50,314 nt of DNA from Lentisphaeria bacterium (GTDB lineage: Bacteria; Verrucomicrobiota; Lentisphaeria; Victivallales; UBA1829), in the NCBI GenBank assembly GCA_017456495.1, contig JAFTJI010000099.1, forward strand, positions 1 through 50,314, in the 5' to 3' direction. Shown piece after piece: positions 8,027-38,185 of this stretch. Under the pieces are notes generated by a model. It worked only from the letters and a program-made list of their open reading frames with translations. It was not told the origin of the DNA and made no database searches. Every line of letters starts with the position of its first letter. The first letter of the stretch is position 1. The position numbers and the translations under genes were made by a program.

Positions 8027-8070
8027 TCTTTCATTTTTTAAGCGTTTTGAGTTCAAAATAGCCGTTTTTT

Positions 8071-8137
8071 CAGCTCATTCGTAATGAGCAGGTCATCGGT
8101 TCAAGTCCGATAATTGGCTCCATTTTTTTGCCTTTTT
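8071..8137 (+). repeat. att site (right): duplicated tRNA-Thr 3' fragment
   Basis: Identical to 395-461; lacks the 5' acceptor strand and D arm. Confidence 0.95.
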
Positions 8138-28320: not shown

Positions 28321-28779
28321 TTATTTTGCAACTTTTTTAGCGGCAGGTTTTGCGGGCTTAGCTGCGGGTTTCGCAACAGGCTTTGTTGCAGGTTTAGCTG
28401 CGGGTTTCGCAACAGGCTTTGTTGCGGGCTTAGCTGCGGGTTTTGTAACAGGAGCAACTGCAGGAGCAGACTGAGGTGCAGTTTTCGCTGCGTCTTCGGT
28501 GACCGCAAGGGCTGCACTGCTGTCAGCCGTACTGGAAGCAGATGCTTTTCTGCCGGAAACAGCTGCCAATGCCAGTGTTACAACGAAGAAAATTGCGATC
28601 AGAACCACCGTCAGTTTTGACAAATGATTCATTGTCTGTGCACCAAACACAGTTTCACCGGCTCCGCCGAATGCAGATCCCAATCCGCCGCCCTTTGACG
28701 GCTGAACAAGTACAAGACAAATCAACAAAATTGCAATAATAACCGCAATAGTGTAAAGAATTACGCTCAAAACGCCCAT
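28321..28779 (-). CDS. secG: Preprotein translocase subunit SecG with Ala/Lys/Pro tail
   Basis: LVLVQPSKGGGLGSAFGG...FGA; two TM helices. Confidence 0.9.
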   Translation of the reverse strand: MGVLSVILYTIAVIIAILLICLVLVQPSKGGGLGSAFGGAGETVFGAQTMNHLSKLTVVLIAIFFVVTLALAAVSGRKASASSTADSSAALAVTEDAAKTAPQSAPAVAPVTKPAAKPATKPVAKPAAKPATKPVAKPAAKPAKPAAKKVAK

Positions 28780-34483: not shown

Positions 34484-34534
34484 CTGCCTGATAGCCCCAC
34501 AGTACGGAAAACAACACCGTTACTGCACATAAAA

Positions 34535-34575
34535 AAGTGGAATGTCACCCATCATTTCGAGTGACATTCCGCTTT
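34535..34575. terminator. Hairpin, likely bidirectional terminator between convergent genes
   Basis: AAGTGGAATGTCAC...GTGACATTCCGCTTT. Confidence 0.6.
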
Positions 34576-34660
34576 GATTATGACCGGGTTATAACTGTTC
34601 GACAACTGTCTGTCCGGGAAACAGCTTTTCCGGCAAGATTGACGACCTTATTATCAAGGA

Positions 34661-35071
34661 TTAAAGCAAAGACTTGCACTTCTTACTTATTATGGAAGCT
34701 GTGACATCAAGATCCGGTGTCGTAACCTCTTCCACTTCGCTCTTTTCCTCTTCTTCCTCTTCTTCGTCTTCATCTTCTTCGTACTCGACGTCACCCTCGC
34801 TGTCGAAATAGGTCTTTGTCAATTTTTCCAATGTTCTCTGCATATCAGCATCCTGATAACAATACACTGCACCTCCGGCAACACCGGCAACCAGCAAAGC
34901 GATCACACTCCAGATAATGATTTTTTTCGCAGGACTTTTCTTGATAACTGTTTCAGGGGAAACAAGGAAATTTTCATTACAGACAGGACACTTGATTTCT
35001 GTGTCTTTCATTTCTGCTGTAATTTCGATAGATTTCTGACAATGTGTGCAACGAGTTTTCATGATTTTCAC
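34661..35071 (-). CDS. Zinc-ribbon membrane protein with acidic tail
   Basis: CTHC...CPVC, one TM helix, Glu/Asp run. Confidence 0.65.
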   Translation of the reverse strand: MKIMKTRCTHCQKSIEITAEMKDTEIKCPVCNENFLVSPETVIKKSPAKKIIIWSVIALLVAGVAGGAVYCYQDADMQRTLEKLTKTYFDSEGDVEYEEDEDEEEEEEEKSEVEEVTTPDLDVTASIISKKCKSLL

Positions 35072-36164
35072 CTTTTCCTTTCGGTTTTATTTTGTTGTTT
35101 CTGTTATAGAAGAAAAACTACAGGTAAAAATCTGACAGAGGGAAATAAAAAAAAATCAAATTTGCAGATACTTCCGGTACTCCGATTCCTTCAGATCTAC
35201 AACCTGACCGACAAACGGCTGCAATATCGCCACAATATCCCGATGATCCTCCTCCGAATACTCCTCAATCGAATACCGGATATCAGGATTCTCAGGATCA
35301 AACGTCCCCACATTATCCGTCGCAGATTTGATTTGATTCGGATAAAAAGCAACAACTTCATCACCGTTTTTGGATTGCATTACACCATCATATCCATTAC
35401 GTTCAAGCCAGGAACGAAATTCATGTTCACCATAAAAATCACGCAGCAATCTGTATGGAATTTCAACAGTGAGATCTCTTCTTGAAAAGCCTCGATCCTG
35501 AAAATACAAATGTGTTGCCAAAAGCTGTAAATCTGTATTTGAACCGGGATTGTAAATGCGTTCAGAAAAACCATATTCAATCCATGTATGTCCATTTTCT
35601 TCATGCTTTACAGGATCTGCTTCAATAACAATTTCATCGGAATTTGAACTTTTCCGGATAGAAAATTTTTTGTTGTGATACACATCGATAAACATTCTGG
35701 CATATTTATCAAGCGTGATTTCTCCTGCAAAATCCCCATTTTTATCATAGGTACTCAAAGTAAAATCTTTAAGTAATTCAGGAAATAACTTCACAGCATT
35801 AACAATTTCAACAGAATTTACTTCGTCTCCTAAAACTGGTTTTCCATTCCAATAATACAGACTTTCAGAGAAATAAAATGGATTTTTAATACTCAAATAA
35901 AACGGGTAAACATTCTTTCCATAATATCCAGCTTCTCCTTCACTTGCTTTGCCATTTCCAAAAGTAAAATAAAAGCCACGTCCAAAAAATCCATTATCAC
36001 CACTTCCTGATCCGCGATATTTATCAGAAAAAACAGCTTCACCGGAAGGCTCTGAAAACATATCCCAATTTGTCCCATGATAAACCACCATTGGATCACC
36101 ATTTTCATCCACAACCTTGCTTTTGCCAAACCACTTTTTAAACTGCAAAGTTTCCGTTTGCGGC

Positions 36165-36270
36165 TTGACTTTTAAGCCAACATCGGCTATATTACGCATG
36201 ACGGAATCAAATGCGTATCTGTTGGGGAATTGCACCCCTTCAGCATTAAGTATTGATTCCGCTTTTTTTT
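36165..36270 (+). ncRNA. Putative antisense small RNA unit (promoter, hairpin, U-tract)
   Basis: TTGACT-17-TATATT; closing stem CGGAATCAA/TTGATTCCG; T8. Confidence 0.55.
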
Positions 36271-36864
36271 GTGCATAAAGAACACTTGGTATTCCATTTT
36301 TTTCTTTTTCAACAGCATTTTTTGCTAACTTTGAAAATGCATTTGCACGACCTTGCGCTGAAGTCATAATATGAGCATCTATTTTATTTTGCTCTGAACG
36401 ACCATTCAATAAAATCGGCACAACAACAGCATCACCGTTTTTATCTGTCAATTCAAGAATGACTACAACACTTGTATCCGGATGAGTTTCTGAAGTAATT
36501 ACCATCAAAGGATTTTCAAGTTTTTCAGGAATCTGTTTGATCAATTCTCCCAAATCATGATTATGATCCTTCTCTGTTTTCTTTGGTAAATAAATACTCT
36601 CAATATGTTTTGCTGTTGTCATTATCGGCAATTTGGAAAAACCCATGTCAATAAAAATTTGCGGTGTATCACGCATAAAAACAGACCCATTGCCTGAATA
36701 TGTATGATTTAAAACAGCATCAACACTGTTAGAAAATGGAATTTGATAAAAAACTTTACCGTTTTCCTCCATTTTTCCCTGTTCATCAACAGAATACCGG
36801 ATCCCGTTACCTCCGTTTAAGTCCGTTCCCGTCCGTAATTCTCCGTCATTTTCCGTTCCATCAC

Positions 36865-36961
36865 TTGAATTTTCCGGAATCAATGATATACTATGATCGG
36901 TCAACATTCCGGTCGCGGACGCTCCTCTTTGAGCGAATTTACGGCGTTTGTTGACTTTTTT
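36865..36961 (+). ncRNA. Putative antisense small RNA unit
   Basis: TTGAAT-16-TATACT with extended TG; closing stem GTCAACA/TGTTGAC; T6. Confidence 0.5.
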
Positions 36962-37131
36962 ATTGCTGTAAAAAGACTTGAAATCACCCCTGTTTCCAGT
37001 TGATAAGGTATAAACTGTTTTACCAATTTTATACTTATAAACTTTATTACGCCGTTTTTTCCCCTTTTTATTTTTTGTTATTTCAATTGCCGGCGTTTCT
37101 GCTAAGGCTAGGAGAAATTGAAAAATCTCGC

Positions 37132-37239
37132 TTGACAAAATCAATTAGTTGTTGTATTGTAAGGCTGCGGTCGGCTGATGGATCAACAACCCCAAGACTG
37201 TAATCTTGTGTTTGTCCCACGTACAGAGACCGCTTTTTT
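37132..37239 (+). ncRNA. Putative antisense small RNA unit, cloverleaf-like
   Basis: TTGACA-17-TATTGT; closing stem GCGGTC/GACCGC; T6. Confidence 0.55.
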
Positions 37240-37799
37240 ATGCTTATATCCTTGAAATACGCCCTGTTATCTGCTGCAGTATCATCAAGTTTGATTGCCG
37301 CTATATAATGTTCTCCATTAATATCTAAAAGCGCAGCATAAACAAACTGCCCCTTAAGATCTTTGCGTTTTTCCTTATGGTAAAATCAGTTTCCCTGAAA
37401 ATCTGTCCCTTTTGCGTGTCCCGCCATAGCTCTTTGAGCGGCGGCGGAAGGGTAAATTGTCACGACACGGGGTAGCGAGATAGAGAGAGATTTTTGAGAG
37501 AAATTGAGGGTTTTCTCTCAAATATACTTTGCAACTGACATCTCTGTTTAAAATAAAAAAAATTACACAATCCTGACTCTCGCAAGGGAGAAAACTTCAC
37601 GGGCAGCGCAAGCTGACCTCTTCACAAGTGTAATGGAGCGTAAGCGGAATGAAACGTCTTCACAAGCAAGGCGTTGCCTGAGTTTTAGTGAAAAGCGGCT
37701 GTCGCCGCGTGAAGATGTGAAGAGCTTTTGCGATTGCCGCTTATGCGGCAAGTTGCCCAAAGCGTGAAGTGAAGCCTTGCGGCTTCGTTCACCAAAAAT

Positions 37800-37829: not shown

Positions 37830-38185
37830 TGGTGGAGACGGCGGGAGTCGAACCCGCGTCCTGTGACAGCTTTCCGATGGCATCAACATGCTTTCTCCAT
37901 CTTTATCGTTTTTTCGTCTCGCGGCTGAGCCAATGGATAGGCGGCTTTGCGACTATACTGTCTGAATCTCACTGATTTAACAACAGTCCGATCAAATCAG
38001 CCAGGACTCTGACGACGTCTCAACTTCCCTTAGAGTCCGTCAGGGAGGAGACGTCACTGCAACTTAGGCAGCGAGAGCGTACTCTTCGTTCGCTTGTATT
38101 TTTTGACAGAAGTTTAACGAGGCCAACTGTCATCCTCGGCATGCAGCTGTCGGTCTACTCGTCCAGTCGAAACCATGACGTCCCC
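37830..38185 (-). ncRNA. ssrA: tmRNA
   Basis: 5' GGGGACG pairs with CGTCTCC-ACCA; T-loop GGTTCGACTCCC; tag ORF ANEEYALAA-TAA. Confidence 0.96.

Follow-up and report, generated by a model that had tools for sequence, protein, structure and literature searches.

Short antisense RNAs encoded in cis are well known as a kind of regulator carried by mobile elements. RNA-OUT of IS10 is a short antisense RNA that is transcribed from a constitutive promoter in or near the coding region of the element, folds essentially into one long stem-loop and pairs with the element's own mRNA. OOP of phage lambda and IsrR of Synechocystis are small antisense RNAs with their own promoter and intrinsic terminator, which overlap a coding part and lower the mRNA. 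The antitoxin RNAs of type I toxin-antitoxin systems, such as Sok and RNA II of par, are likewise cis antisense RNAs opposite a possibly harmful gene on mobile DNA. Here we describe three antisense units, cassettes A, B and C, in a 50,314-nucleotide stretch of DNA (hereafter the window) from a Lentisphaeria bacterium of the order Victivallales (GenBank assembly GCA_017456495.1, contig JAFTJI010000099.1). The units lie opposite the relic of a gene for a polyvalent protein and, judging from the sequence and its relatives, they are probably real small antisense RNA genes situated between protein domains.

Few counter-defence proteins encoded by phages and conjugative elements are larger or more widespread than polyvalent proteins, and we know of no account of how carrier cells keep their expression safe. 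Domains such as MuF_C, ART-PolyVal and LPD3 occur in variable orders in these proteins of phages and mobile elements (Iyer et al., 2017; PMC5512222, main text). The words 'linker', 'antisense', 'small RNA' and 'promoter' do not occur in the main text of that paper, the supplements of which might hold data on domain boundaries. Among the papers listed on polyvalent proteins with antisense or small RNAs, on ART-PolyVal and on antisense RNAs and terminators of conjugative elements, judged by title and the start of the abstract, no description of such an arrangement was found. What would appear to be new is that a single giant multidomain gene has several such RNA genes in its linkers, that they are inherited together with the protein modules and that a compromise among codons, promoter and stem can be seen.

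A preliminary description of this DNA had proposed three antisense units at 36165-36270, 36865-36961 and 37132-37239, each with a near-consensus sigma70 promoter, a closing stem of 6-9 bp and a run of six to eight T. All three were found on the + strand at these positions, with promoter scores of 10/12, 9/12 and 10/12, stems of 9, 8 and 6 bp, and T8, T6 and T6, respectively. The promoter scan places TTGACT-17-TATATT at 36165-36193 in cassette A (36165-36270; -35 at 36165-36170, -10 at 36188-36193). Its closing stem, CGGAATCAA/TTGATTCCG (36202-36210/36253-36261), starts 8 nucleotides (nt) after the -10 and ends 1 nt before the T8 run at 36263-36270, and the predicted RNA, from about 36200 to 36270, is antisense to codons 292-327, between MuF_C and ART. 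In cassette B (36865-36961), the promoter is TTGAAT-16-TATACT at 36865-36892, with the -35 at 36865-36870 and a TG-extended -10 at 36887-36892. The stem GGTCAACA/TGTTGACT (36899-36906/36949-36956), which includes one G-U pair, starts 6 nt after the -10 and ends 0 nt before the T6 run (36956-36961); the unit is antisense to codons 62-94, after the motif SFYSNKK. Cassette C (37132-37239) has the promoter TTGACA-17-TATTGT at 37132-37160 (-35 at 37132-37137, -10 at 37155-37160) and the stem GCGGTC/GACCGC (37167-37172/37228-37233), again 6 nt after the -10 and 0 nt before a T6 run (37234-37239). It is antisense to the linker that follows the LPD3 fragment, and its -35 overlaps the start of the main open reading frame (ORF) and the frameshift junction described below.

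The closing stems thus begin about where transcription would start, and each predicted RNA is a single hairpin closed end to end, with fold z-scores against dinucleotide shuffles of -4.38 (A), -2.59 (B) and -2.96 (C). In all instances, in the window and in relatives, a stem of 6-13 bp is directly followed by a T-rich run, a candidate terminator (with loops of more than 8 nt, not called by a generic scan). The three cassettes resemble one another over only 22 nt at 77% identity (family D12), do not form a tandem array and have no Rfam match near the gathering score in 36050-37450 (best 17.6 bits against 60).

The preliminary description had placed all three units within one polyvalent gene. This holds for A and B, which lie in an ORF of 662 codons starting at TTG (35156-37144, - strand) that comprises an unnamed N-terminal piece, MuF_C and ART-PolyVal, but C lies in an upstream fragment of 100 residues in another frame (37086-37385, - strand), and the gene is a broken relic. 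In the main ORF, Pfam assigns residues 189-282 to MuF_C (2.2e-15) and residues 346 to about 615 to ART-PolyVal (3.8e-19), with a second ART stretch also matched. The upstream fragment, made up of the C-terminal part of LPD3 and a linker, comes after a stop codon and extends into the main ORF. It gives no Pfam match on its own and was assigned via its homologs in genomes of the same order (36-78% identity by tblastn; 46-82% for the four with Pfam LPD3), since LPD3 was found by Pfam in four of the five homologous ORFs tested, ending just before the linker of cassette C. The frame of the fragment is homologous up to '...QQLIDFVKRDF', and in the main ORF homology to other polyvalent genes begins at 'SEIFQFLLALAE...'. 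As these two readings share overlapping nucleotides, the gene is truncated at its 5' end and frameshifted near 37120-37135, where a repeated GAGATTTT-like motif marks the overlap of the main frame with that of LPD3 and its linker. In locus L048 both peptides stand in a single frame ('VKGDFAQSEIFS'), which suggests a small deletion as the cause of the frameshift in the window. With MuF_C and ART-PolyVal by Pfam and LPD3 via homologs, the gene belongs to the polyvalent class, of which the window holds a truncated and frameshifted copy.

Each cassette had also been said to follow a putative RNase-like domain. Cassette C does follow LPD3, and A comes after MuF_C, but the supposed PBECR-like piece before B has no Pfam match: residues 1-100 of the main ORF match no Pfam family at E <= 5, and the homologous 221-residue stretch of L031 gives one chance-level match to the unrelated CUB family (E 0.21, 12.4 bits, cut-off 30). 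The pairing of A with MuF_C needs a different emphasis. Although A lies between MuF_C and ART, its promoter falls in the conserved start of the ART module, and in L033 and L036 a cassette directly precedes ART where no Pfam MuF_C was found upstream of it. Cassette A is therefore at least as much the companion of ART as of MuF_C. In L035, a homologous cassette lies about 315 residues upstream of ART and is thus part of the preceding module. The further proposal of the preliminary description, that each toxic domain would have its own RNA antitoxin or regulator, is accordingly not established in the form of one antitoxin per RNase-like domain. Within the window, the layout scan defined below places no cassette after the ART domain, in agreement with the preliminary description.

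Compared with the described systems, the cassettes resemble RNA-OUT in being antisense RNAs of a mobile element that are hairpins throughout. RNA-OUT, however, overlaps the transposase mRNA at its start and ribosome-binding site, whereas the cassettes lie mid-gene at domain boundaries, number up to three per gene and differ in sequence from module to module. OOP and IsrR are single units per target and neither lies in a multidomain effector gene, whereas there are several cassettes per gene; to our knowledge, modular co-inheritance with protein domains has not been described for either. The toxin of a type I system is a small membrane peptide with its control at translation initiation; the partner of the cassettes is a multidomain protein of 660 to more than 2000 residues, with the RNA far from any start codon. 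The small hydrophobic toxin peptide of type I systems, the antitoxin RNAs of which are treated in PMC7472228 (in part), has no counterpart here, the partner being an ORF of 662 residues, or of 2200-2700 residues in relatives, with the cassettes mid-gene. The tandem array of RNA repeats found in type III (ToxIN-like) systems is likewise absent. FinP, which is bound by FinO/ProQ at terminator hairpins, is similarly a structured antisense RNA of a mobile element with a terminator hairpin and a U tail, but it targets the traJ leader, unlike the mid-gene cassettes (PMC12001967 and PMC9977716, both in part).

The rarity of the arrangement was assessed with a formal layout, in which a promoter of at least 9/12 is followed, 4-11 nt after the -10, by the 5' arm of a contiguous stem of at least 6 bp, the 3' arm of which ends 0-2 nt before a run of at least six T lying 40-90 nt after the -10. 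On both strands, this layout occurs four times in the window (the three cassettes and 34605 to 34531 on the - strand) and 52 times in the 3.43-Mb genome. Among 2000 codon shuffles of the gene, 1928 had no match, 72 had one and none had two or more; the corresponding numbers for 2000 dinucleotide shuffles were 1956, 44 and none. The five promoter-like sites and eight T runs on the cassette strand are ordinary for its composition (shuffle P of about 0.25 each), so that the improbable part is the arrangement of the elements and not their numbers. Antisense cassettes number 0.0156 per kb in the long ORFs of this genome (37 in 2365 kb), as against 0.176 per kb (11 in 62.4 kb) in 13 polyvalent ORFs of the order. 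With a relaxed detector, these 11 compare with 2.74 +/- 1.74 in codon shuffles (maximum 8, n = 100), and the sense strand of the same ORFs holds 4 as against 1.06 +/- 1.05.

The fourth match in the window, at 34531-34605 (-), consists of a GC-rich hairpin of 13 bp and a T run just after the stop codon of an ORF for a protein with a zinc ribbon and an acidic tail (34661-35071), with a weak promoter-like site (9/12). It is most simply explained as the ordinary terminator of that ORF, the promoter-like site being there by chance. Elsewhere in the genome of the window (G000), in contigs C117 (18450-18732) and C205 (25831-26248), two matches to the layout lie close together in each.

Because the layout had been defined after the three units were seen, evidence from homologs that does not depend on its definition was sought. 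Relatives of the relic gene are present in 17 of the 251 genomes of the order (that of the window counted), and all three cassettes recur among them on the antisense strand, in the homologous place and at the same domain boundaries, within differing architectures. Family A, just upstream of the start of the ART module (KVKPQTETLQFKKWF), was found by the detector in L044, L045, L038, L042, L019, L033, L035, L036 and L041 and by eye in L046 and L030, and the metagenome locus L085 has the same layout. Family B, after SFYSNK, occurs in L043 with the same stem as in the window and in L031 and L019 with different stems. Family C, after LPD3, occurs in L048-L052 with four different stems, while L053 has the promoter. 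Closing stems are CGGAATCAA, GCGTTGAAGC, GCCAGATGGTATA/GCCAGTTGGTATG, GGAAGTCGGAAT and GAACTCGGAAGC in family A, GTCAACA, GCTCCGGGC and GCTGGC in family B, and GCGGTC, CGGAGA, GGCATC and GGCACCTG in family C. Stem sequences thus vary across lineages, and position and layout are constant.

Structure conservation was judged by register-based pair counts in place of alignment-based covariation. When arms were swapped between homologs, pairing fell from 11.1 to 6.5 in family A, from 8.5 to 5.9 in B and from 6.3 to 5.0 in C. Between L051 and L052, a change from Met to Val on one arm is accompanied by a change from Ser to Pro on the other, and a U-A pair becomes C-G. All 15 homologous RNAs folded are closed end to end, with z-scores from -1.3 to -5.9 (-2.1 or lower in 14 of them). 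The window and L043 are 93-100% identical in nucleotides over RNA_B and 27-73% identical in its flanks. A covariance model built from three close sequences added L038 alone (20.9 bits, E 0.14), besides a weak match to the ordinary terminator at 34528-34576.

Among the relatives, L040 (4584-4682, +) has a perfect TG-extended promoter (TTGACA-17-TATAAT, 12/12), followed by a hairpin closed by 9 bp and a T-rich tail. This unit sits about 45 nt past the stop codon of a polyvalent ORF of 921 residues and points toward the 3' end of the ORF; it may be a further antisense RNA or a 3'-end RNA. In L045 (5118-5399), from a genome of the same family, what is left is cassette A with about 45 residues from the start of the ART module; the T8 run is the exact beginning of this remnant and directly follows the stop codon of a hisF-like gene.

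The strand on which the structure acts was approached through mismatches. A detector that tolerates G-U and A-C equally, which replaced a G-U-only detector (24 vs 6), gave 111 Watson-Crick pairs, 15 G-U pairs and 2 A-C mismatches in the closing stems of the antisense-strand cassettes. A G-U pair of the antisense RNA is an A-C mismatch in the sense RNA, and the two are equivalent in DNA; the bias of 15 to 2 therefore points to an RNA of the antisense strand. In a set of 18 instances picked with a G-U-tolerant detector, the antisense RNA also gave the stabler fold of the two strands 15 times, with a mean difference of -2.5 kcal/mol.

Selection is also visible on the promoter. In families A and C, the -35 falls on a Val codon; the -10 of all families falls on an Ile codon. 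At sites gathered by peptide motif alone, the Val codon is GTC in 12 of 13 (26% gene-wide in the 13 polyvalent ORFs), the exception being in a locus with an in-frame stop codon, and the Ile codon is ATA in 15 of 17 (16% gene-wide). In L030, L033, L036 and L042, the promoter is kept despite a differing peptide. Scores of the putative promoters are 9-10/12 in the window and reach 12/12 in relatives. The promoters of the host look alike: for 16 of its 41 tRNA and transfer-messenger RNA (tmRNA) genes, the 120 nt upstream contain a site scoring 10/12 or more, compared with 74 of 5000 random windows, and the -10 of 15 of these 16 is TATATT, equal to that of cassette A. The housekeeping promoter consensus of genome G000, as read from its tRNA genes, is TTGACA, TTGACT or TTGAAA, a spacer and TATATT. 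The units are very unlikely to be a product of chance, as the layout is rare and conserved with changed stems, the G-U pairs are strand-specific, the codon choice is forced and the promoters are host-like. The reading of the units as cis-antisense small-RNA genes that travel with domain modules is supported by their conservation at the same boundaries in relatives and by these signatures of selection on both RNA and promoter.

Spread beyond close relatives was examined in 80 diverse ART modules from metagenomes (33-56% identical to the query, 197 kb). Promoter-like sites of at least 10/12 are concentrated at the module start in these sequences, with 6 of 16 antisense sites within +/-120 nt of it (10% of the sequence) as against 0 of 15 on the sense strand. 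Full cassettes stand at the start of the ART module in L073 (perfect TTGACA-17-TATAAT, 12/12), L085 (with a homologous inner hairpin), L102 and L117.

We favour the reading that cassettes A, B and C are genuine genes for small cis-antisense RNAs, lodged in the linkers between the domains of a phage polyvalent effector of the virion-cargo type, and that their RNAs would restrain the effector mRNA; taken as a whole, this reading is given a rough probability of 0.5. A number of observations count against it. The shuffle p-values are optimistic, owing to the post hoc definition of the layout. Low-GC ORFs of the same genome carry 0.083 antisense cassettes per kb, only about twofold below the polyvalent set. 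The enrichment over shuffles that had been put forward as a check on the proposal, which was found in the gene itself with two or more matches in none of the 2000 shuffles of either kind, does not extend clearly to the 80 metagenome loci, where 12 antisense and 2 sense cassettes in 197 kb are not clearly above the shuffle-derived rate. In addition, three of three distant phage polyvalent genes with a GC content of 64-66% (F116, vB_PaeM_USP_18 and Dfl-JY45) have no promoter-like sites and no cassettes, and the feature is thus recurrent and not universal to ART-PolyVal genes. The arm-swap result is marginal for family C. Formal covariation on three close sequences is weak, with one pair showing a double change, which 166 of 500 shuffles reached, and MAFFT with RNAalifold misaligned the diverged stem arms. 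As the homologs are related, the codon and G-U counts do not represent independent events, the number of which they overstate. A simple terminator scan calls none of the three cassettes, on account of loops longer than 8 nt, and long-range closing stems are unusual as terminators. In this genome, where the gene is broken, the RNAs may be left without a live target. Finally, the regulatory mode is purely something we infer, by likeness to OOP, RNA-OUT, IsrR and the type I antitoxin RNAs.

Several other explanations have to be weighed with the same data. The cassettes might act through transcription itself, with head-on promoters and immediate terminators serving as roadblocks or as interference that throttles the sense gene, or as insulators against antisense read-through. 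The promoters, near-consensus to consensus and of host type, are indeed oriented against the sense gene, the terminators would limit transcription to about 70 nt, and the loops are poorly conserved (30-47% in family C), as expected if the content of the RNA matters little. Such action, however, needs no RNA with its 5' end paired to its 3' end, and yet the stems were kept through sequence change with G-U pairs specific to the antisense strand and RNA_B is 93-100% conserved; interference is thus unlikely, though it deserves to be kept in view. Alternatively, the RNAs could act in trans, either as decoy or counter-defence RNAs of the phage or as RNAs of domesticated relics that silence the polyvalent mRNA of incoming phages (superinfection immunity). 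This would fit the survival of all three cassettes intact in a truncated and frameshifted gene, as well as the remnants in L045 and L046, in which hardly more is left than cassette A and 30-45 residues from the start of ART, and the near-identity of RNA_B between genomes would permit cross-pairing. The relics may, however, simply be young, no loop motif is common across the families, which argues against a common target in trans, and no intact phage gene with a near-identical cassette is among the loci obtained. Action in trans is accordingly regarded as a slim possibility.

Signals for DNA recombination at module junctions, that is, inverted repeats and conserved junction DNA by which polyvalent domains are shuffled, are suggested by the high nucleotide conservation of the junction (the KVKPQTETLQFKKWF region) in proteins that are 33-70% identical, by the breakpoint of homology at the edge of cassette A in L045 and by the recurrence of modules in differing orders. 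Cruciforms nevertheless predict equal numbers of G-T and A-C mismatches, where 15 and 2 were seen, and recombination accounts neither for the fixed spacing of the promoter nor for the codons chosen to form it nor for the T run, which makes this explanation very improbable. A feature of the sense mRNA is harder still to credit. The A8 and A6 runs that precede the hairpins on the sense strand could suggest a lysine A-run and hairpin that pause or shift ribosomes at domain boundaries, but the stem follows the A run after 0-1 nt, too close for a classical -1 frameshift stimulator, and the homologous tails TCTTTTATT, TTTTGTT and GATTTTATT are not slippery. Moreover, what pairs as G-U in the antisense RNA is an A-C mismatch in the sense RNA, 15 of 18 cases have the weaker fold on the sense strand and the conserved antisense promoter would be left without explanation. 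A chance by-product of AT-rich, lysine-rich linker DNA is scarcely plausible either: the ordinary numbers of promoter-like sites and T runs and the larger number of layout matches in low-GC ORFs speak for it, and the shuffles, the rarity in the genome, the G-U bias, the arm swap, the codon choice, the positional enrichment and the folds of the homologs speak against it.

Known elements of other kinds were also considered as candidates and rejected. An integron attC site was dismissed by eye, as each family has arms of its own and these do not match the R'/R'' boxes. A MITE-like insertion (miniature inverted-repeat transposable element) was rejected because the cassettes share just 22 nt and the reading frame continues through them. 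Classical -1 frameshift sites were rejected on the spacing and tails already given.

In the favoured reading, a host-type sigma-70 promoter (TTGACA/T, 16-17 nt, TATATT-like) would start transcription 6-8 nt before a long imperfect hairpin. The closing stem would join the two ends of the RNA by pairing, with the U run immediately behind it, so that the hairpin may double as an intrinsic terminator. The transcript is predicted to be stable, about 60-75 nt long and complementary to the polyvalent mRNA at every position. Pairing with that mRNA, proposed from the likeness to the systems named above, could lower its output, either because the duplex is cleaved or because ribosomes are stopped during elongation. 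If a potentially toxic late gene with ART or nuclease domains is expressed leakily, harm might be averted in this way while the element sits in the host. Linkers would tolerate a second, RNA-level code, which could explain both where the cassettes lie and why they travel with a domain module. In a distinctly tentative and rather unlikely extension, each polyvalent module would carry its own linker antisense RNA gene and be shuffled with it as one unit, and chromosomal relics (beside ssrA in the window and after hisF in L045) would have been domesticated to silence the effector mRNA of related incoming phages.

The GC content of the relic is 36.7%, compared with 43.7% for the window and about 50% for neighbouring genes, and it is present as a single copy in the genome. 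Relatives are mosaics that match different parts of the query, their modules shuffled as is typical of this protein class. Two of them that are full-length (2454 and 2679 residues) adjoin phage tail proteins (phrog_376, E 1e-192 and 6e-161; tail-fibre families), and the gene class is therefore probably a virion-associated phage effector. A pattern search of the 251 genomes of the order returned only the six loci previously obtained, and a search of genome contigs for close relatives gave one locus. Viral contigs held no close relative, by protein or by degenerate pattern, and plasmids no relative at 1e-8.

The low-GC relic starts about 445 nt past the 3' end of the tmRNA gene (37830-38185, - strand; Rfam RF00023, 152.2 bits); the 3' end of a tmRNA gene, which adjoins the relic here, is a classic insertion point of islands. 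In a genome of the same genus, G067, homology extends as far as the tmRNA 3' end and ceases there, 127 nt short of the end of the contig. Within the gap between the tmRNA gene and the relic, a stretch of about 33 nt (37762-37794) has copies of 97-100% identity on several other contigs of G066 and G067 (same genus) and resembles a short dispersed repeat. Rfam detects only tmRNA and tRNA over the whole window, including a weak tRNA-like match at 8061-8119 (+; 32.4 bits, barely over the gathering score) for which ARAGORN makes no call. At 28350-28457, a 12-nt periodic repeat in seven overlapping copies lies within an ORF at 28321-28779 (-) and indicates a repetitive peptide.

If the favoured reading is true, the cassettes would represent a class of small RNAs that is hidden in coding sequence, invisible to searches for intergenic small RNAs and inherited with protein modules. 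They would also offer a clean natural case of dual coding, in which amino-acid changes on both arms preserve pairing, as between L051 and L052, and codons are dictated by a promoter on the opposite strand. In practical terms, they would provide a sequence handle for module boundaries and for regulation in thousands of unannotated giant phage genes. Should each module prove to carry its own antisense RNA gene, this would be a modular double code of protein and RNA, and domesticated relics would amount to an RNA-based immunity made from phage debris.

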